Shown here: piece after piece, positions 1,058-9,088 of the stretch
How the letters are laid out: the number at the start of each line of letters is the position of its first letter
How positions within the stretch are numbered: position 1 is the first letter of the stretch
From: a virus
DNA: 14,130 bases
Reading direction: 5' to 3' (one strand)
UHGV virus genome: UHGV-0306157
The notes under the pieces: model-generated
Told to the model about the DNA's origin: nothing
Databases searched by the model: none
The model's input: the letters and a program-made list of their open reading frames with translations, nothing else
Made by a program: the position numbers and the translations under genes

Positions 1058-2887
1058 ATGAGCACTTCCGCATACAAGAGCAAAATTCGAACACTCCAGT
1101 GCGCGTTAAAAAACGGTGAATTTGAACCATTCATACAACATATCCGTTTTCCATACTTTAAAAATATAGAGCAGAATGCAAGGATCGATTTTCAGTTCCC
1201 TATAACGGCTTTAGTAGGAAAAAATGGAACTAATAAAAGTTCTGTTATCAAAGCGCTATTTGGTTGCCCACATGGTAAAAATATAACTCGTTATTGGTTC
1301 ACAACTGAAACAGATGAGTTTCCTGACCTAAAACTTGCTGATGGCAGTTCTCTTAAACCTAGATATATATATGGATATAAAAATGCTGATGGCCGTTTAG
1401 TTGAAATACTCCAAGCGCGTATCAATGCTACCAAGAAAACAATCGATTATTGGGAAACAAGTCGACCATCTGTTGGTGATAACATGGAGAGTATTTCGGA
1501 TGATCTGGGTGCTAATAGTAATGCAACCAGATGGAAAAAAATCAAGAAGGGATTGGTTTTCCTAGATTTCAGATCGGAAATAAGTGCATTTGATAGATGT
1601 ATGTATCACTCTGATTTTAAATTAAGAAAGAAGAAGAGCGGTGTATTAATTACAAAGCAAGACTATATCAGAAGCAAATCTAAATATATAAAGAAAGCTT
1701 TTGATGAAAAGCTAAGTAATTTAAGACTTTGGGGGACGGAAACCATTGTTAAAAATATAATCTTGGCGCCAGAACTAGTTGAGCACGTCTCATTTATATT
1801 AGGGAAAAAATATAAAGTCATTAAATTTCTTGAGCATCGGTTATTTGGAACCAGAGGAGGAACCGCTTTACTTTCAACTGATAAGTTGAACTATACAGAA
1901 GCTTTTGCTGGAAGTGGTGAATTTGCAATAGTTTCACTAATACTCAATATTTATTCGGCCAAACCTAATTCATTAATTCTTCTTGACGAACCAGAAGTTT
2001 CACTTCACCCTGGTGCACAGAAAAGGATGATGGATGTTCTGTACTCTATTGTTGAGCAGAAAAAACATCAAGTGGTAATATCAACCCATTCTCCTGTTAT
2101 TGTGAACACTCTTCCCAAAGATGCCATTAAATTATTTGTTTTTGATGAAGAGAATGAAACAGCTAAAATAGTTCAAAATATAGCACCGGATGAAGCTTTT
2201 ATAGAGCTAGGGCATGATATTAACAAGAAAACAATAATTGTAGAAGATAAATTAGCTAAAGCAATTATAGATAAAGCGATTAAAAATGATGAAAGATTAA
2301 GCTTATCATTTAGTGTAAGTTATATACCAGGTGGTTCGGAGACCATTTTAAGCAAGCATCTTCCCAGTTACGCTGTGGTAGAACGCAATGATATTTTGTT
2401 TTTACTTGATGGTGATAAAAACAAAAAAATAAAACCAGTAAGAATTAGTGAAATTGCTGATGCTGATTTAGTTAATACAATGTGCAAATATTATGGTTGC
2501 GAGTTAATTATCAATGCCAGTGGTAGTAATGGCAAAAAAAATGAACAAGAATCTAATAGACTCAAAAGGCAAGTGCTTGAGTATGCATTCAATAAAGTGC
2601 AGTATTTACCATTTGATACTCCCGAACAATTACTCATTGAAAAGGCAATTACGCCAAGTGAAAAAGAAATAATTGATTCACAGACCTGGAGTTCTAATGA
2701 TCCAGAACTGTATAAGAATCAAATAAGATTATTAGCGCAACACCTGTATGATAAAGAAGAAGTAAATGCAGAGGAGATTTTTTGCATCCAAAAAATAATG
2801 ACCGCAAGACTTAAAAATGAATTGCCTGAATTTATAAAAATAAGAAAAATAATTACTCAGGCTCTTGACCGTGGTATCATTAGGTAG
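1058..2887 (+). CDS. ABC-type (SMC/RecF/OLD-like, AAA_21-like) ATPase with putative C-terminal TOPRIM-like nuclease domain, 609 aa
   Basis: Long ORF. P-loop VGKNGTNKSS (nt 1217-1240, deviant: N in place of the Gly before Lys); signature-like AGSGE; Walker B LILLDEPEVSLHP (Asp at 1985-1987); H-loop ISTHSP. C-terminal part has IIVEDK (Glu at 2243-2245) and LLDGDKN (DGD at 2408-2416) about 55 aa apart, compatible with TOPRIM Glu + DxD. Strongly AT-rich relative to flanking prophage genes. Confidence 0.8.
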   Translation: MSTSAYKSKIRTLQCALKNGEFEPFIQHIRFPYFKNIEQNARIDFQFPITALVGKNGTNKSSVIKALFGCPHGKNITRYWFTTETDEFPDLKLADGSSLKPRYIYGYKNADGRLVEILQARINATKKTIDYWETSRPSVGDNMESISDDLGANSNATRWKKIKKGLVFLDFRSEISAFDRCMYHSDFKLRKKKSGVLITKQDYIRSKSKYIKKAFDEKLSNLRLWGTETIVKNIILAPELVEHVSFILGKKYKVIKFLEHRLFGTRGGTALLSTDKLNYTEAFAGSGEFAIVSLILNIYSAKPNSLILLDEPEVSLHPGAQKRMMDVLYSIVEQKKHQVVISTHSPVIVNTLPKDAIKLFVFDEENETAKIVQNIAPDEAFIELGHDINKKTIIVEDKLAKAIIDKAIKNDERLSLSFSVSYIPGGSETILSKHLPSYAVVERNDILFLLDGDKNKKIKPVRISEIADADLVNTMCKYYGCELIINASGSNGKKNEQESNRLKRQVLEYAFNKVQYLPFDTPEQLLIEKAITPSEKEIIDSQTWSSNDPELYKNQIRLLAQHLYDKEEVNAEEIFCIQKIMTARLKNELPEFIKIRKIITQALDRGIIR

Positions 2888-2910
2888 TGATTCTGGATGC
2901 AGAGGGAAAA

Positions 2911-3951
2911 ATGAAAAAAATCAAAGTGTTTGACTTCTTTTCCGGTTGTGGTGGAACCAGCCAAGGTTTCCATCAAGCTGGAATGGATATTGTTTTTGGC
3001 CTCGATTTCGACGTTGATGCAGCCAGTTCATTTCGTGCAAATTTCCCGCAGGCTGCTTTTATTAACTCGGACATTAGGTTAATCGACAACAATGCCATAA
3101 ACAAGTTAGTAAAAAAACATCGTAATGATTACATTCTTTTTTCAGGATGTGCGCCTTGTCAACCGTACTCTAAGCAAAACTCAAATAAAAAAAATGATGA
3201 TCCACGATTAGATCTATTAAAGGAATTCAGTCGTTTTGTAGAGCATTATATGCCTGATTTTATTTTTGTTGAAAACGTGCCAGGAATGCAAAAGTTTAAC
3301 AAAAATGAAGGAACATTCATGATGTTTTTAGAAATGCTTTCATCAAAGGGATATAGTGTAGATTATAAAGTAATGCCAGCTGCGTGGTACGGTGTACCAC
3401 AGACGCGAGAAAGATTAGTGCTCATTGCATCCAAGGATTTTTATGTCGCATTGCCTTCTCCTACACATGGGGTTGGAAATACTCCCTATTCAACAGTAAA
3501 GGACTGGATCGCTAATTTACCGAAGATAGAAGCAGGAGAAAAGCATAATAGTATTCCTGATCATGAAGCTGCACGCTTATCAGAGCTTAATTTGCGTAGA
3601 ATAAAATGCACTCCTGAAGGTGGAAGTCGAGAATTTTGGCCAGATGAATTGATTTTAGAATGCCATCGTAACCATAAAGGGCATACAGACGTATATGGAC
3701 GTTTGAGTTGGGACAAACCAGCCAGCGGACTAACAACTCGTTGTATTAGCTATTCAAATGGACGTTTTGGACATCCAACACAAAATCGAGCAATATCGGT
3801 TCGTGAAGCAGCGTGTCTACAAACATTTCCTTTGGATTATAAATTTATTGGTTCTTTGCAATCTCGGGCTCGTCAAATAGGAAATGCGGTCCCTCCGAAG
3901 ATGTCTGAAACGATTGGAAAACATTTGCTTAATATAATCAAAGCCTCCTAG
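2911..3951 (+). CDS. DNA (cytosine-5)-methyltransferase, 346 aa, all catalytic motifs present
   Basis: Motif I FSGCGG, motif IV GCAPCQPYS (catalytic Cys), motif VI ENVPGM, motif VIII QTRERLVLI, motif IX ISVREAACLQTFP, motif X GNAVPP, with a variable region between VIII and IX. ATG at 2911 preceded by GAGGG (2902-2906); the track start at GTG 2887 overlaps the ATPase stop. 23-nt gap to the upstream ATPase gene implies an operon. Confidence 0.9.
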   Translation: MKKIKVFDFFSGCGGTSQGFHQAGMDIVFGLDFDVDAASSFRANFPQAAFINSDIRLIDNNAINKLVKKHRNDYILFSGCAPCQPYSKQNSNKKNDDPRLDLLKEFSRFVEHYMPDFIFVENVPGMQKFNKNEGTFMMFLEMLSSKGYSVDYKVMPAAWYGVPQTRERLVLIASKDFYVALPSPTHGVGNTPYSTVKDWIANLPKIEAGEKHNSIPDHEAARLSELNLRRIKCTPEGGSREFWPDELILECHRNHKGHTDVYGRLSWDKPASGLTTRCISYSNGRFGHPTQNRAISVREAACLQTFPLDYKFIGSLQSRARQIGNAVPPKMSETIGKHLLNIIKAS

Positions 3952-5955: not shown

Positions 5956-6744
5956 TTACCCCCTGAAGCCTGGCGGGATCGCACTGTCCGGCAACGAGAC
6001 GGTGTTAACCTGTCGGAGCAACGTCTCAGGCCGAACACCTTTCGGCGCGAACAGGCCCTGGTATTCATTGGCGATACTGTGTCGAATCACCTGCTCAGGT
6101 GTAAAACCCTGCTGGCGGAATTTTTCCAGCTCCCGTATCGCCCAGTTAGCGCCCTGCTCCGTTCGAATCGGTTTTCGCAATGCCTGCCTGAACCGGACCC
6201 ACTCATGCCAGAGTGTTTCCGGCAACCAATCGGGCAGCTCAATAGCCTCCGGCTCAAATTTTTTAGACGCTCGTTTTTGGCGAGGGGGATTTAGGGGGAG
6301 ATCAGTATTTATATCTTCCTCTTCCTCTTCCTCTGGTAACGCTTTTTGATCCATTTGTGTAACGCTGCCAGCGTTACCTTTTCGTTTCAGTTCGCGTATT
6401 TTTGTAACTCGCTCGTTTGTAACCGCCCGTTTTTTAGAGCTTTTCCCGTTATGACGTTCAAAGTTAGGTAGAGAAAGCCCACCGTCATTTTCGACCAGCC
6501 ATCCAACCTGAATTAACGCATCAGCAAAACCAGCCATAAAAGTGATGCGATCTATTGCACTTTTTGTAACGCCGCGAGCGTTACAATCTGCATTACCGTC
6601 TATCATTTGTTGATCCGCCCATGCCCAGAAGCGAATAACCTTCCCTAATGCGGCATCTGGATCAATATTCAGAATCTCAGCAAGCCTGAATATTTCCGGC
6701 TTATCCGGCGTAATAACCTCGAGCTTTATCCAGTTTGAAGCCAT
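5956..6744 (-). CDS. ydaU: phage replication initiation protein (lambda O-like, YdaU/DUF1376-type), 262 aa
   Basis: Position immediately upstream of the dnaC-like gene in a lambdoid replication module; acidic poly-Glu linker (EEEEEED); iteron-like palindromes embedded mid-gene; AGGTGA RBS upstream of the ATG at 6744. Confidence 0.6.
   Translation of the reverse strand: MASNWIKLEVITPDKPEIFRLAEILNIDPDAALGKVIRFWAWADQQMIDGNADCNARGVTKSAIDRITFMAGFADALIQVGWLVENDGGLSLPNFERHNGKSSKKRAVTNERVTKIRELKRKGNAGSVTQMDQKALPEEEEEEDINTDLPLNPPRQKRASKKFEPEAIELPDWLPETLWHEWVRFRQALRKPIRTEQGANWAIRELEKFRQQGFTPEQVIRHSIANEYQGLFAPKGVRPETLLRQVNTVSLPDSAIPPGFRG
6336..6423. repeat. cluster of GTAACGC-type repeats inside the O-like gene (candidate origin iterons)
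   Basis: Half-site GTAACGCT at 6336-6343; 19-bp perfect palindrome GTAACGCTG-C-CAGCGTTAC at 6359-6377; direct repeats TTGTAAC at 6402-6408 and 6417-6423; adjacent polypyrimidine tract at 6311-6333. Confidence 0.5.
6564..6586. repeat. palindrome TTGTAACGC-N5-GCGTTACAA (second copy of the GTAACGC inverted repeat)
   Basis: Perfect 9-bp arms read directly from the sequence; lies within the O-like coding region. Confidence 0.5.
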
Positions 6745-6756
6745 TTGTTTTCACCT

Positions 6757-6777
6757 TGTAACGCTCGCAGCGTTACA
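6757..6777. repeat. palindrome TGTAACGCT-N3-AGCGTTACA (third copy, noncoding, just upstream of the ydaU start/RBS)
   Basis: Perfect 9-bp arms; located in the ydaT-ydaU intergenic spacer 6745-6821, about 15 nt upstream of the AGGTGA RBS. Confidence 0.5.
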
Positions 6778-6821: not shown

Positions 6822-7244
6822 TCAATGCACTACGACAGAATCGCCGGGCGACCCACCACCGCTGAAATGTGCTTTCCGGTAAACGGCCTGGACTGCATCA
6901 TCATGCGCATCAATTGCCGTACTCAACGCTTCCTGCGCCGCCAGTAATGCACGGCGTTCCAAGGTATCGAAGATGCAGAGTCGGTGACGCAGCTCGCGCG
7001 GAAGAATTGCCAGAACCGCAGGGATCAGTTTCTGAATTTTTTCCCTTTGCGCTTTCGTTTCACCTTTCAACCAACGGTGATAGATATTCTGCTGATTGTT
7101 CCAGTCCTTGCCTGGTACAAGGGGCAATTCGCCGCCCCCCTGGCGCAGATATTCTTCAGTAATTGCGTTAGCGACCCACGCCTGCCCTTTTTCGGCTGCC
7201 AGGGCTAACAACACTGATTCGATGTGCTCATGCCTGATTTTCAT
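6822..7244 (-). CDS. ydaT: YdaT-family protein (Rac prophage; reported toxic partner of YdaS / CII-like regulator), 140 aa
   Basis: 140-aa ORF whose sequence (MKIRHEHIESVLLALAAEKGQAWVANAITEEYLRQGGGELPLV...) matches my recollection of K-12 YdaT; its start overlaps the ydaS stop by ATGA, implying translational coupling. Confidence 0.7.
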   Translation of the reverse strand: MKIRHEHIESVLLALAAEKGQAWVANAITEEYLRQGGGELPLVPGKDWNNQQNIYHRWLKGETKAQREKIQKLIPAVLAILPRELRHRLCIFDTLERRALLAAQEALSTAIDAHDDAVQAVYRKAHFSGGGSPGDSVVVH

Positions 7245-7483
7245 GAATCAACCGCTCCTATGCTGTTTTCGCTATGCTTACCGTCTGGGGGGAATACATC
7301 GTCAAGTCCACAATGAGCGCCAAGCCGATTAAGGGTAGAAACAATTTTTCTGCACTCCTCTAGTCCAGGGGTACGAAAATTTGCTTCGTAATTTGCCAGT
7401 CGGCTTTGTATCCACCCTAACTGAACAGCAAGTTGTCTTTGAGACAGCCCAAGCTGTTTTCGATATGTTGAAATTTTGTTCAT
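7241..7483 (-). CDS. ydaS: Cro-like HTH (XRE family) regulator, YdaS-like, 80 aa
   Basis: HTH motif LGLSQRQLAVQLGWIQSRLANYEAN; GGAGG RBS 6 nt upstream of the ATG at 7483; divergent from the repressor gene. Confidence 0.7.
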   Translation of the reverse strand: MNKISTYRKQLGLSQRQLAVQLGWIQSRLANYEANFRTPGLEECRKIVSTLNRLGAHCGLDDVFPPDGKHSENSIGAVDS

Positions 7484-7579
7484 TGAAAACCTCCGATGAC
7501 AATTTTAAACACATCTTGTGTTATATGGTCAAGCTGTTTTGTGTTTTATGTAAATCACGATTCGTGATACAAGGATGCA
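7484..7579. promoter_or_regulatory. divergent promoter/operator region between ydaS-like and racR-like genes (OR-like)
   Basis: 15-bp palindromes AACACAtctTGTGTT (7508-7522) and ATCACGattCGTGAT (7554-7568) plus half-site TGTGTT (7540-7545). Minus-strand promoter candidate: -35 TTGACC (complement of 7527-7532), 17-nt spacer, -10 TTTAAA (complement of 7504-7509); the first palindrome sits in the spacer/-10. Confidence 0.6.
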
Positions 7580-7999
7580 ATGGAAAAAGAAAACGAAAAA
7601 ATTGCCGCTAGTAGGCTCAATGACAAAATTGCAATGCGTCTTAAAGAGCGCAGGCAGAAGCTTGGTTTATCTCAAGGAAAACTTGCTGAAATCTGCGGAT
7701 GGACGCAATCGCGTATAGGTAACTATGAGGCGGGCAGCAGAAATGTTGGAGTGCATGACGCTGTCGTATTGGGAAAGGCACTTGGCATATCTCCTCCTGA
7801 GCTCCTCTTTGGAGAACAGGAATCTTCTGAATTGTGGTTAAATGAATCCCAACGAAAACTTCTTGAGTTGTTTAACCAGCTACCGGGCTCAGAACAACAA
7901 CGAATGATTGAGCTATTTGAAGTCCGGCTAAAAGAAATCGATGAGTATGTAGAAAAATATTTGAGAGGCAGGCTTAAAGATAATCCCCCACCGGAGTAA
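7580..7999 (+). CDS. racR: prophage repressor, HTH XRE family (RacR/cI-like), 139 aa
   Basis: HTH LGLSQGKLAEICGWTQSRIGNYEAGSRN near the N-terminus with a C-terminal extension; divergent from the Cro-like gene; AAGGA RBS; followed by a strong terminator. Confidence 0.6.
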   Translation: MEKENEKIAASRLNDKIAMRLKERRQKLGLSQGKLAEICGWTQSRIGNYEAGSRNVGVHDAVVLGKALGISPPELLFGEQESSELWLNESQRKLLELFNQLPGSEQQRMIELFEVRLKEIDEYVEKYLRGRLKDNPPPE

Positions 8000-8029
8000 T
8001 GATCTTGCTATCACAGTAATATGCCAATC

Positions 8030-8054
8030 AGCCCGCTATCAGCGGGCTTTTTTT
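8030..8054 (+). terminator. Rho-independent terminator downstream of the repressor gene
   Basis: AGCCCGCT (8030-8037), loop ATC, AGCGGGCT (8041-8048), then a run of T to 8054. Confidence 0.8.
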
Positions 8055-8083
8055 GTACCATCATCATATGACATCCACCACAA

Positions 8084-8125
8084 AACACATTTCGTGTTGA
8101 CACAAGAAAACGTATTGTGTTTAAT
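8084..8125 (+). promoter_or_regulatory. sigma70-type early promoter with overlapping operator (OL-like) driving ydaF-kilR-ydaE-racC-recE-recT-lar
   Basis: -35 TTGACA (8097-8102), 17-nt spacer, -10 TTTAAT (8120-8125). 15-bp near-palindrome AACACAtttCGTGTT (8084-8098) overlaps the -35 and half-site TGTGTT (8115-8120) overlaps the -10; both match the operators in the 7484-7579 region. Confidence 0.6.
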
Positions 8126-8305
8126 AAGCATATCCAAACAACGCCCCACCAGAGAACGGCAGGACAATACCTCGAGTTATCCAGCCACTGAACAGGGCTA
8201 AGTAGCCAGCCTGAGGCATACGAACATGACGGCAGTTGTTGATTGATACAAAGCGCAGTAGATAAAACGTTCCGCCACCCGGCGTTAAGGGGAAATGAGG
8301 TCAAC

Positions 8306-8458
8306 ATGGATACTATCGATCTTGGCAACAACGAATCTCTGGTATGTGGCGTGTTTCCCAATCAGGACGGCACATTCACCGCCATGACGTATACCAAAAG
8401 CAAATCGTTTAAAACCGAAGCTGGCGCACGTCGCTGGCTTGCCAAAAATACCAGCTAA
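8306..8458 (+). CDS. ydaF: small Rac-prophage protein (YdaF/DUF1391-like), 50 aa
   Basis: ATG at 8306 preceded by GAGG (8297-8300); product MDTIDLGNNESLVCGVFPNQDGTFTAMTYTKSKSFKTEAGARRWLAKNTS matches my recollection of K-12 YdaF; the longer track ORF from 8243 lacks an RBS. Confidence 0.6.
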   Translation: MDTIDLGNNESLVCGVFPNQDGTFTAMTYTKSKSFKTEAGARRWLAKNTS

Positions 8459-8866
8459 ACCATTTATTGGATTAATTCAATATTCTTGCTGTAGGGGTAT
8501 AGCCGAGGCCACCAAAGCCCGGAGGTGGTGAAATAAAACCGGGCACAACACGAAGGCGCATTTCCGGTATCCATAAAGAGTCGGTCTTGTCTGTTAAATT
8601 TAAATGGTGGGAGTGCGCCTCCGGTTGTAAATAACGACATTGCTATGTGTAGTCTTTGGCGGCATCAGTTCTACTCCGTGGCTGCCCTGCCGCCCCTTTT
8701 TAAAGTGAATTTTGTGATGCGGTGAATGCGGCTAAGCGCACGCGGCACAGTTAAAAGCATCAGTGTTATGGGTGGATTATCCGGCGTTAATTGTTAACTG
8801 GTTAACGTCACCTGGAGGCACCAGGCACCGCATCGACAAAATTCATTTGTAAAAATGGAGATAATT

Positions 8867-9088
8867 ATGATTGCTCATCACTTCGGAACTTATGAAATAC
8901 CACGTCAGTGTGTGACTCCTGGCGATTATGTTCTTCATGAAGGTCGGACATATATCGCCTCGGCAAACAATATTAAAAAGCGAAAACTTTATATTCGTAA
9001 CCTGACTACAAAAACATGCATTTCTGACTGCATGATTAAAGTCTTCCTCGGTCGTGATGGTTTACCTGTAAAGGCGGAGTCATGGTGA
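8867..9088 (+). CDS. kilR: KilR, FtsZ-inhibiting cell-division toxin of Rac, 73 aa
   Basis: [49 protein letters not shown]...[15 protein letters not shown] matches recalled KilR; GGAG RBS (8857-8860) sits 6 nt before the ATG at 8867; the track start at 8855 overlaps that RBS. Confidence 0.75.

Follow-up and report, generated by a model that had tools for sequence, protein, structure and literature searches.

We consider it likely that this locus controls immunity in a Rac-like lambdoid prophage of E. coli as an on/off switch, with a repressor of the DicA type and a Cro protein arranged around five operator sites. Three of the sites lie between the divergent genes for the two proteins, and two lie at an early promoter behind the repressor gene. 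In the 14,130-nt stretch of DNA that was analysed (the window), the initial annotation had picked out three 15-bp palindromes of 6-3-6 architecture and read them as a lambda-like OR/OL arrangement. That arrangement is supported by phylogenetic footprinting, by the co-variation of OR and OL, and by the homologues and sites of phage mEp213. The palindromes themselves lie where they had been placed, two of them perfect and the third with one mismatch, and all three belong to a larger layout of three plus two sites at 23-bp phasing, not the two plus one first described.

The regulatory proteins and flanking genes

The repressor (139 aa; positions 7580 to 7999, plus strand) and the Cro-like XRE HTH protein (80 aa; 7241 to 7483, minus strand) both match Pfam HTH_3, with E values of 5e-13 and 7e-10, respectively. 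Their genes had earlier been called racR and ydaS, and these names proved to be positional only. BLASTP finds no similarity between the repressor and K-12 RacR (158 aa; E = 2.0), and the Cro-like protein gives no alignment with either K-12 YdaS (98 aa) or DicC. Judged by their sequences, the two proteins are a DicA-family repressor and an mEp213-type Cro, analogous to RacR and YdaS by position and function only.

In BLASTP the repressor aligns with DicA of the Qin prophage over its full length (29% identity over 129 aa, E = 2e-15), and the alignment keeps the LPxSEQ motif of the helical C-terminal domain, which together with an XRE HTH makes up the DicA-type repressors of about 135 aa. A Pfam search with the repressor returned HTH families alone, with no S24 peptidase domain, and matches to solved structures were to the HTH only, with nothing for the C-terminal domain. 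Repressors without S24 are known exceptions, namely DicA, RacR and the Gifsy repressors (PMC10448788). Given this lack of an autocleavage domain, induction would be expected to proceed through an antirepressor or some other route and not through RecA-stimulated cleavage.

The closest DNA-binding domains to both proteins are those of phage mEp213 (GenBank JQ182733): the repressor HTH is 58% identical to that of mEp213 CI, and the Cro-like protein shares 55% identity with mEp213 Cro (E = 1e-28). However, mEp213 CI carries a LexA-type S24 cleavage domain where the repressor here has its DicA-type C-terminal domain. The HTHs of the repressor and the Cro-like protein are also 45% identical to each other (E = 2e-10). 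The initial annotation was right about the similarity of their recognition helices, which read QSRIGNYEA in the repressor and QSRLANYEA in the Cro-like protein. Q-S-R..N is thus common to both helices, and in the repressor the base-contacting positions Q43, S44, R45 and N48 align with Q28, Q29, S30 and Q33 in helix 3 of the 434 repressor HTH.

The second gene of the leftward operon (6822 to 7244, minus strand) encodes a YdaT-family, CII-like regulator that matches Pfam YdaT_toxin (E = 5e-11) and PHROG 163, a CII-like activator (E = 1.5e-36); the gene is 93% identical in nucleotide sequence to K-12 ydaT. An inverted repeat, CTGATTttcatgAATCAA (7234 to 7251), spans the ydaT start codon. This repeat has one mismatch to TTGATT-N6-AATCAA and is placed as is the footprinted YdaT-box of K-12 (PMC11879457), and it would presumably be bound by YdaT.

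On the other side, the start of the early operon headed by the promoter PL (8126 to 9088, plus strand) consists of a conserved leader followed, on the same strand, by a DUF1391 gene (8306 to 8458; E = 3.5e-29), a DicF-like sRNA (8644 to 8695; Rfam RF00039, 60.9 bits) and kilR (8867 to 9088), with gene names taken from the annotation of a 99.7%-identical O103 prophage. YdaE-family, racC-like, recE and recT genes lie 3' of kilR on the same strand. The PL leader has no Rfam match even at E values up to 5, and RNAalifold gave two short helices only, with almost no covariation. Prophages of this type are found in O103 and O111 strains, among others.

Operators and promoters

The divergent intergenic region is 96 bp long and holds three sites, centred at 7515, 7538 and 7561. 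OR1 (AACACAtctTGTGTT, 7508 to 7522) and OR3 (ATCACGattCGTGAT, 7554 to 7568) are perfect palindromes, the former in the spacer and -10 of a candidate leftward promoter, PR, and the latter 12 to 26 nt upstream of the repressor ATG. OR2 (AAGCTGtttTGTGTT, 7531 to 7545) is degenerate with a perfect right half, and its centre is 23 bp from that of OR1 and 23 bp from that of OR3. It lies over the -35 of PR, with which its outer AA is shared. At the homologous position locus L003 has AAGACGaaaCGTTCT, and mEp213 has a full site.

Candidate PR (7502 to 7532, minus strand) was read from the sequence with a -35 of TTGACC (7532 to 7527) and a -10 of either TTTAAA (7509 to 7504, 17-nt spacer) or TAAAAT (7507 to 7502, 19-nt spacer). 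The choice is ambiguous, though the 141-aa class, with TTTAGA against TAGAAT, favours the 19-nt option. The -35 retains its TTG in every haplotype. For the repressor's own promoter, PRM, the candidate -10 is GATACA (7566 to 7571, plus strand), which overlaps the end of OR3; homologous loci have TAAAAT, TAATAT or TAAAAA at this position, 6 to 8 nt before the ATG. Transcription from candidate PRM would probably yield a repressor mRNA with no leader or almost none; the mRNAs of K-12 racR, paaR2 and lambda cI are leaderless (PMC8630535, PMC9638921). Alternatively, an AGGA at 7572 to 7575 could serve transcripts initiating further upstream. The sole intergenic match of a consensus promoter scan (TTGTCA at 7502 to 7497, 18 nt, CAAAAT) was rejected, as its start would fall within the cro ORF.

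Behind the repressor gene, OL2 (AACACAtttCGTGTT, 8084 to 8098) is a palindrome with one mismatch, and its final two bases are the opening two of the -35 of a PL-like early promoter (8097 to 8125, plus strand), read from the sequence as TTGACA (8097 to 8102), 17 nt and TTTAAT (8120 to 8125). OL1 (AAAACGtatTGTGTT, 8107 to 8121), one mismatch from the consensus, lies in the PL spacer and overlaps the -10, and its centre is 23 bp from that of OL2. The initial annotation had placed both the promoter and the overlap of its -35 with the third palindrome correctly, but "near-consensus" overstated the former: in TTTAAT a T replaces the A at hexamer position 2, leaving the promoter without the usual -11 A. 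It is for this reason that PL was missed by the consensus promoter scan, among whose matches neither PL nor PR appeared. TTTAAT is nevertheless invariant across 30 haplotypes, and the spacer that precedes it, 17 nt long in the 139-aa class, measures 18 nt in the 141-aa class. A third OL site, sought 23 bp to either side of the pair (8061 to 8075 and 8130 to 8144), gave no convincing match. An intrinsic terminator of the repressor gene (8030 to 8055, plus strand; an 8-bp stem with six G-C pairs, then TTTTTTT) stands between the PRM transcript and PL, and comparable hairpins are found 3' of the repressor gene in loci L003, L006, L009, L010 and L011.

The core motif CACRNNNYGTG occurs exactly three times in the window, each time at one of the palindromes noted initially. 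Shuffled windows contained a mean of 0.71 occurrences, and three were reached in 6 of 200. About 0.011 would be expected in the roughly 216 bp of control DNA, for a Poisson probability of approximately 2e-7 of finding three or more. When up to two mismatches to AWCACRNNNYGTGWT are allowed, the window has five matches, four of them inside the two control regions.

Conservation and co-variation of the operators

Footprinting drew on a scan of a genome collection, which added five relatives, and on a scan of viral contigs, which added mostly near-identical copies; neither brought new specificities. Across 36 haplotypes of the OR region, 1 of 30 half-site positions varies, compared with 35 of 66 other intergenic positions (Fisher p = 7.6e-7). 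The single half-site change is an A/G substitution in OR1, and the half-sites of OR3 are invariant. In contrast, the central spacer bases of these two sites vary at five of six positions (three of three in OR1, two of three in OR3). The same pattern holds for OL2 among 30 haplotypes, where change is confined to 1 of the 12 half-site positions, compared with 34 of 63 positions elsewhere (p = 0.004), and all three spacer bases vary. The one variable position in the OL2 half-sites alternates between C and T. The initial annotation had regarded this site as a meaningful hybrid of the other two, and the alternation of its inner base among natural variants speaks instead for a tolerated R/Y degeneracy. 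We predict from these patterns that the palindromes are conserved binding sites of a lambda-type prophage switch.

OR2 and OL1 behave differently on their two sides. In OR2 the right half and the spacer ttt are invariant and the left half, GCTG, is variable; OL1 has a constant right half, and three of the six positions in its left half vary. It may be promoter elements that hold the right halves constant, in which case the functional operators would be limited to the three palindromes that are perfect or nearly so, and OR2 and OL1 would be conserved merely through promoter overlap. Repression would be exerted by single sites at PR (spacer and -10) and PL (-35), without the pairwise cooperativity of lambda. 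The variable left halves fit such an arrangement, as does the 141-aa class, in which the right half of OL1 has no recognisable 6-3-6 partner. On the other hand, the 23-bp phasing is exact in both OR and OL, and the spacer and right half of OR2 are invariant though they lie outside any assigned hexamer. Moreover, the OL1 position is filled by perfect palindromes in L006, L009, L010 and mEp213, and K-12 Rac likewise has perfect palindromes at equivalent positions. We therefore regard a three-site switch as unlikely and retain the five-site arrangement.

Operator sequences also co-vary between OR and OL. In nine related loci, representing six operator specificities (AACACR, GACACR, YTCACR, TAAGCC, TAAASC and TAGGC), the best palindrome at OR reappears in the PL region of the same locus at 10 to 12 of 12 positions (shuffle p <= 0.009), whereas other specificity groups match at just 6 to 9 of 12. 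The sites of K-12 Rac, for example, match the OL of the window at only 8 of 12 positions. Across loci, the operator sequence changes along with the HTH of the phage repressor. The geometry is kept: an OL2-like site shares its own last two bases with TTGACA in K-12 Rac, L003, L006, L009, L010 and mEp213, and an operator overlapping TTGACA together with a second site in the spacer and -10 is found in K-12 Rac, in Citrobacter, Enterobacter, Klebsiella and Aeromonas phages, and in mEp213.

Comparison with known switches

The dicA-dicC/dicBp immunity locus of the Qin prophage of E. coli K-12 contains a counterpart of the repressor. DicA is a full-length homologue and, like the repressor here, a short protein with an XRE HTH and an LPxSEQ C-terminal domain and without S24. 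Qin likewise has a small divergent regulator, operators in both regions, and a repressed promoter directly behind the repressor gene that leads in the same order into DUF1391, DicF and a division inhibitor; DicA represses both dicCp and dicBp (PMC10448788). It differs in its operators, which resemble GTTAGY-N4-RCTAAC, in an upstream PL operator that, unlike OL2, shares no bases with the -35, in a DicC unrelated to the Cro here, and in having DicB in place of KilR as division inhibitor. The flanking genes of the locus described here, ydaT, ydaU, recE and recT, are of the Rac type, in contrast to Qin.

In Rac of K-12 (PMC9638921, PMC11879457, PMC11014345), the RacR operators are 6-3-6 palindromes (PMC9638921), and their sequence, WTAGGC-N3-GCCTAW, shares this architecture with the sites here but not their bases. 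As here, multiple sites lie between the divergent genes, a nearly identical YdaT has a YdaT-box across its ATG, and ydaF-like, kilR, recE and recT genes follow downstream. Two RacR-type palindromes surround TTGACA-17-TATAGT behind racR, with a PL spacing of 25 bp versus 23 bp here, and loss of RacR derepresses ydaG, ydaF, kilR and recET. Unlike K-12 Rac, the window has no sieB.

A lambda-like circuit has been shown experimentally for the paaR2/ydaS-ydaT switch of CP-933P in E. coli O157:H7 (PMC8630535), with operators shared by PRM and PR, related operators at a PL that has the same -35 and -10 as the CP-933P PR, and YdaT as a CII analogue. Its operators are 18-bp repeats with the half-site GTTTAGTAA, and a toxin-antitoxin pair follows the repressor gene, both unlike the locus here. 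In this prophage OR is bound by PaaR2 and by YdaS, which also regulate a PL (PMC8630535). The sites of the lambdoid phage mEp213 have the same CACR-N3-YGTG core as those here, a spacing of 23 to 24 bp and the same overlap of OL2 with the -35. It has three full OR and three full OL sites, compared with two OL sites in the window. N and nutL follow PL in mEp213, whereas no N gene was seen in the window.

These comparisons bear on whether Cro uses the same sites as the repressor. The lambda analogy can fail in detail, as K-12 YdaS was reported not to repress racR (PMC9638921), and the palindromes might serve as operators of the repressor only, with Cro acting elsewhere or weakly and with no symmetric competition between CI and Cro. 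Phage pPE4 offers a hint of partial reading, since its Cro, though identical, adjoins operators in which the outer two bases of each half-site are different. Even so, the CACR core is kept in those operators, the recognition-helix residues Q-S-R..N are common to Cro and repressor, and the related Cro of mEp213 comes from a genome with the same operator core. The YdaS of CP-933P, moreover, does act at both OR and PL (PMC8630535). Operators for the repressor alone are, on this evidence, quite improbable, and we favour binding of both proteins to the same sites.

Readings of the palindromes as accidental inverted repeats, as parts of hairpins or terminators, or as targets of a host factor such as CRP are extremely improbable. 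Short palindromes of AT-rich sequence abound between genes (nine perfect 6-3-6 palindromes occur in the window) and TGTGA/TCACA resembles the half-sites of CRP, whose site is TGTGA-N6-TCACA, but the CACR-N3-YGTG motif clusters only at the two promoters, its arms are fixed while the spacers mutate freely, no T-run follows the palindromes, the half-site orientation and 3-bp spacing do not fit CRP, and the operator sequence shifts together with the phage repressor HTH across loci.

Discussion

In the five-site switch that we favour, the repressor and Cro would each occupy, as dimers, 15-bp operators that follow the pattern A(A/T)CAC(A/G)-N3-(C/T)GTG(A/T)T. OR1 would cover the spacer and -10 of PR, OR2 its -35, and OR3 the repressor's own promoter; OL2 would act at the -35 and OL1 at the spacer and -10 of PL, which would drive DUF1391, DicF, kilR, recE and recT. 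In the lysogen the repressor would occupy OR1 and OR2 together with OL1 and OL2, probably cooperatively, and this occupancy would keep both cro-ydaT and the kilR/recET operon off. From OR2, centred 42 bp before the ATG, the repressor may also activate its own promoter. Cro, once produced, would silence the repressor promoter through OR3. The positions of the sites, their excess over chance, conservation and co-variation, and the protein homologies are established by the analysis; we infer binding, occupancy order, activation, looping and transcription starts, and the cooperativity of the repressor and its looping over the roughly 576 bp between OR and OL are conjectural.

The relation to pPE4 raises the question of how the two proteins read these sites. 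The window has operators of the form AACACR and ATCACG, and pPE4 has CTCACR and TTCACA, so that only the CACR-N3-YGTG core is common to the two. The mosaic joint between the two cassettes falls exactly at the cro start codon. An identical Cro adjoining operators with other outer bases means that Cro and repressor need not read the sites alike, and we suggest tentatively, as a somewhat doubtful possibility, that their specificities are uncoupled in the group that shares this Cro. If Cro reads the core alone and the repressors also read the outer two base pairs, Cro could act in trans on heteroimmune relatives, the repressors would stay specific, and immunity cassettes could be swapped without a change of cro.

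On sequence grounds, the locus is a lambda-type on/off switch of a well-known kind with a new operator specificity. The logic of such circuits has already been shown in lambda, Qin, K-12 Rac and CP-933P, and the conceptual gain is small. What the analysis offers is an operator consensus and a site map for an uncharacterised immunity type that is present in about 150 of 5,426 complete E. coli genomes, O103 and O111 strains included. These may be of use in annotation, in predicting cross-immunity among prophages, and in derepressing recET or kilR in carrier strains. The analysis also corrects the assumption that RacR and YdaS govern every Rac-like prophage: here we propose that control of the toxic genes kilR and ydaT, and of the recombination genes recET, falls to a repressor of the DicA type together with a Cro of the mEp213 type.

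RESULTS

Five candidate operators in two control regions. The initial annotation described three 15-bp palindromes, and all three are confirmed on the sequence. OR1 (AACACAtctTGTGTT, 7508-7522) and OR3 (ATCACGattCGTGAT, 7554-7568), between the divergent regulator genes, are perfect palindromes; OL2 (AACACAtttCGTGTT, 8084-8098), behind the repressor gene, has one mismatch. That count of two plus one missed two sites. OR2 (AAGCTGtttTGTGTT, 7531-7545) lies between OR1 and OR3 with its center exactly 23 bp from each, and OL1 (AAAACGtatTGTGTT, 8107-8121) lies within the spacer of the rightward early promoter PL, overlapping TTTAAT, with its center 23 bp from that of OL2. With this spacing the layout becomes OR1, OR2, OR3 and OL2, OL1, which is lambda-like. 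The right half of OR2 is perfect and its left half degenerate; its outer AA is the TT of the leftward -35, TTGACC (7532-7527). Across 14,130 bases there are three copies of the core CACR-N3-YGTG, every one at OR1, OR3 or OL2; dinucleotide shuffles averaged 0.71 copies, and 6 of 200 reached three. Three cores within the ~216 bp of control DNA compare with ~0.011 expected (P ~2e-7). At up to two mismatches, AWCACR-N3-YGTGWT has five matches in the window, four of them in the two control regions. The candidate leftward cro-ydaT promoter PR and PL are similarly constructed, each read in its own direction: AACACAaaaCAGCTTGACC, 4 nt, AACACAagaTGTGTT, TAAAAT for PR and AACACAtttCGTGTTGACA, 4 nt, AAAACGtatTGTGTT, TAATAA for PL.

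Natural variation at the sites. A scan of viral contigs yielded 80 loci in two classes, one with the same 139-aa repressor and one with a 141-aa repressor (84% identical), giving 36 distinct haplotypes for OR and 30 for PL. In the 96-bp intergenic region, only 1 of 30 half-site positions varies, versus 35 of 66 elsewhere (Fisher p 7.6e-7), and of the six bases in the central spacers of OR1 and OR3, five are variable. At OL2 the figures are 1 of 12 versus 34 of 63 elsewhere (p 0.004), the sole variable half-site position being the inner C/T; no base of the three-base spacer is constant. Fixed half-sites around a drifting center are the signature expected of a dimer that would read two half-sites and ignore the center. 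The third palindrome had been called a hybrid of the other two, but the haplotypes reduce this to a purine/pyrimidine degeneracy that is tolerated at the innermost base. At OR2 and OL1 the right half alone is fixed (at OR2 the spacer also), and the left halves drift. Judged by these patterns, both are best described as weak candidate sites that would need the help of a strong neighbor, and the overlapping promoters may account for part of their conservation.

The two regulators. The proteins encoded on either side of OR had been named RacR and YdaS, names that the comparisons do not bear out: BLASTP gave E 2.0 against RacR and no alignment against YdaS. In the 139-aa repressor (7580-7999, +), Pfam detects an XRE HTH alone; an S24 peptidase domain is absent. 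A full-length alignment links the repressor to Qin prophage DicA (29% identity, E 2e-15), and its HTH shares 58% identity with the phage mEp213 CI N-terminal domain. The repressor is chimeric, joining an mEp213-like HTH to a DicA-like C-terminal domain within a Rac-like genome. The 80-aa protein (7241-7483, -) shares 55% identity with mEp213 Cro (E 1e-28), and the identity between the two HTHs of the window is 45% (E 2e-10). Their translations carry the recognition helices QSRIGNYEA (repressor) and QSRLANYEA (Cro). Repressor residues Q43, S44, R45 and N48 align, in a gap-free stretch, to Q28, Q29, S30 and Q33 of the 434 repressor, in which Q28, Q29 and Q33 make base contacts. Since both proteins have Q-S-R..N at these positions, the earlier point about matching helices holds.

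Co-variation of OR and OL across loci. We compared repressor relatives from other genera together with their flanks. At each locus, a 6-3-6 palindrome of the divergent intergenic region is found again at a promoter that follows the repressor gene. When OR sites and PL regions were compared 9 x 9, 10-12 of 12 half-site positions of the OR-derived site matched in the locus's own PL region (shuffle p <=0.009), except in the row of comparison locus L072, for which the script picked an OR3-type site without an OL counterpart; loci of other specificity groups matched at 6-9 positions. The nine loci represent six specificities: AACACR (this window, the 141-aa class and Citrobacter), GACACR (Enterobacter and Aeromonas phage pAEv1818), YTCACR (phage pPE4), TAAGCC (Phytobacter), TAAASC (Klebsiella phage Kp4865-4) and TAGGC (K-12 Rac). 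In the repressors from Phytobacter and Klebsiella, a DicA-type C-terminal domain is retained behind a different N-terminal HTH. Among CAC-core loci, in few independent cases, the outer bases correlate with the residue or residues preceding the conserved SR: AA with Q, GA with TA, and CT or TT with GS.

Phage pPE4 has a Cro identical to that of the window, in a cro-ydaT stretch 95% identical. From the cro ATG onward it has another intergenic region, a repressor only ~62% identical and another OL. Its sites (TTCACAtttCGTGAG, TTCACAcatCGTGAT, CTCACAtatTGAGTT, CTCACGataTGTGAG) have the CACR core alone in common with those of the window, which suggests that Cro may read the core and that the repressors may add outer-base specificity. 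The swap point of the immunity cassette is exactly the cro ATG. This phage (vB_Apl-pPE4, PP818812.1, L009 2252-3705) was deposited as an Actinobacillus phage, and its kilR region is 92% identical to the window; either that host looks questionable or the transfer was very recent.

Promoters. The near-consensus promoter proposed for PL is present as TTGACA (8097-8102), 17 nt and TTTAAT (8120-8125), matching 11 of 12 consensus positions; the -10 lacks the A at position 2, which is why a consensus scan did not list it. TTTAAT is invariant over the 30 PL haplotypes, the bases following it vary, and the spacer is 17 nt in the 139-aa class versus 18 nt in the 141-aa class. We accept this candidate assignment as most likely PL. 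The -10 of PR is ambiguous, TTTAAA with 17 nt or TAAAAT with 19 nt; the counterparts in the 141-aa class, TTTAGA versus TAGAAT, favor the 19-nt option. Between the repressor gene and PL lies a strong terminator (8030-8055).

The repressor's own promoter, PRM, is not obvious. A candidate -10, GATACA (7566-7571), shares bases with the end of OR3 and lies 8 nt before the ATG; at the same place homologous loci have TAAAAT, TAATAT or TAAAAA, 6-8 nt ahead of the start codon. This position suggests a leaderless repressor mRNA, as described for lambda cI, K-12 racR and paaR2 (PMC8630535, PMC9638921). On the leaderless reading, OR2 is centered 42 bp ahead of the start, the position from which lambda CI activates PRM, and by analogy we infer that the repressor may activate PRM from OR2.

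Genomic context and other elements. A prophage of E. coli O103, O111:H11 and other strains has 99.7% identity to this region, at least 80% of which is present in 153 of 5,426 complete E. coli genomes. The annotated context is Rac-like, with YdaT and DUF1376-type and DnaC-type replication genes on one side and DUF1391, kilR, ydaE, recE, recT, ralR, xis and int on the other. Between the DUF1391 gene and kilR, the PL operon carries a full-length DicF sRNA homologue (8644-8695, +; Rfam RF00039, 60.9 bits, E 1.5e-11) with its own terminator-like hairpin (8678-8693), placing DicF and KilR, both FtsZ-directed division inhibitors, under one promoter.

The ~150-nt leader from PL to the first gene (8140-8300, +) is conserved among heteroimmune phages of Escherichia, Citrobacter, Enterobacter, Klebsiella and Aeromonas (8459-8625 (-) in L001, the K-12 MG1655 Rac locus; 3520-3668, 3476-3625, 3512-3682 and 3535-3680 in comparison loci L003, L006, L010 and L011), with invariant blocks AAGTAGC, GCATACGAA, GCAGCAG and GTTCCGCC..GGCG. 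It had no Rfam match up to E 5, and its RNAalifold structure is weak; our guess is an antitermination or processing signal. Just downstream of PL, a minus-strand terminator-like hairpin with a T-run (8142-8166) could stop antisense transcription arriving from the kilR side. In K-12 Rac, sieB is transcribed in the direction of this hairpin, whereas the window lacks sieB.

A second palindrome, GTAACGCT-N3-AGCGTTAC, occurs in three copies ~200 bp apart (6361-6375, 6568-6582 and 6760-6774; two perfect, one with one mismatch) versus 0.63 expected from shuffles. One copy closely precedes the DUF1376 (YdaU-like) replication gene and two fall in its 5' half, in a segment without blastn-level conservation with K-12 Rac; they could be origin or autoregulatory sites. 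Genes for an ATP-dependent nuclease and a DNA cytosine methyltransferase (1058-3951, +) are oriented opposite to the replication genes around them and look like a moron or defense insertion; their names are those annotated in the 99.7%-identical O103 prophage, where hokD is also nearby.

DISCUSSION

The locus is most likely a conventional lambdoid switch; the lambda-like OR/OL reading of the initial annotation was right in substance, with protein identity, site count and detail corrected. The repressor, on OR1/OR2 and OL1/OL2, would silence the cro-ydaT and DUF1391-DicF-kilR-recET operons. Cro, once made, would act on the same sites, with OR3 a plausible first target. Looping between OR and OL is conceivable, as they are only ~576 bp apart. 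YdaT would be the CII analogue. A YdaT-box-like inverted repeat (CTGATTttcatgAATCAA, 7234-7251; one mismatch to consensus) lies across the ydaT start codon, as in K-12, where the box activates a reverse promoter within ydaS directed toward racR (PMC11879457). Since the repressor has no S24 domain, RecA-stimulated cleavage cannot be the induction route; induction is likely through an antirepressor, by analogy with the DicA and Gifsy repressors.

The core seen here is also that of three OR and three OL sites, spaced 22-24 bp apart, in phage mEp213; this phage has an S24-type CI, N and a nutL boxB hairpin. The last bases of one of its OL sites are common to TTGACA, exactly like OL2. In K-12 MG1655, the racR-ydaG gap (L001 8631-8668) has RacR-consensus palindromes TAGGCataGCCTA and TAGGTaatGCCTA (other strand) flanking TTGACA-17-TATAGT. 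By sequence, this is the putative OL/PL of Rac, with the geometry found in the window; in the publications consulted, RacR sites are mapped to the racR-ydaS intergenic region only, and the RacR regulon is described as not characterized in detail.

RacR forms octamers and footprints on multiple 6-3-6 palindromes, WTAGGC-N3-GCCTAW (PMC9638921), and silencing of racR in K-12 derepresses ydaG, ydaF, kilR, recE and recT. PaaR2 and YdaS of CP-933P footprint on OR and regulate a PL with the -35/-10 of PR (PMC8630535), and DicA represses dicCp and dicBp via operators flanking dicA on both sides (PMC10448788). As the circuit has been shown experimentally in these three close analogues, the window locus adds a member to a known type, with an operator specificity that is, as far as our literature search reached, previously undescribed.
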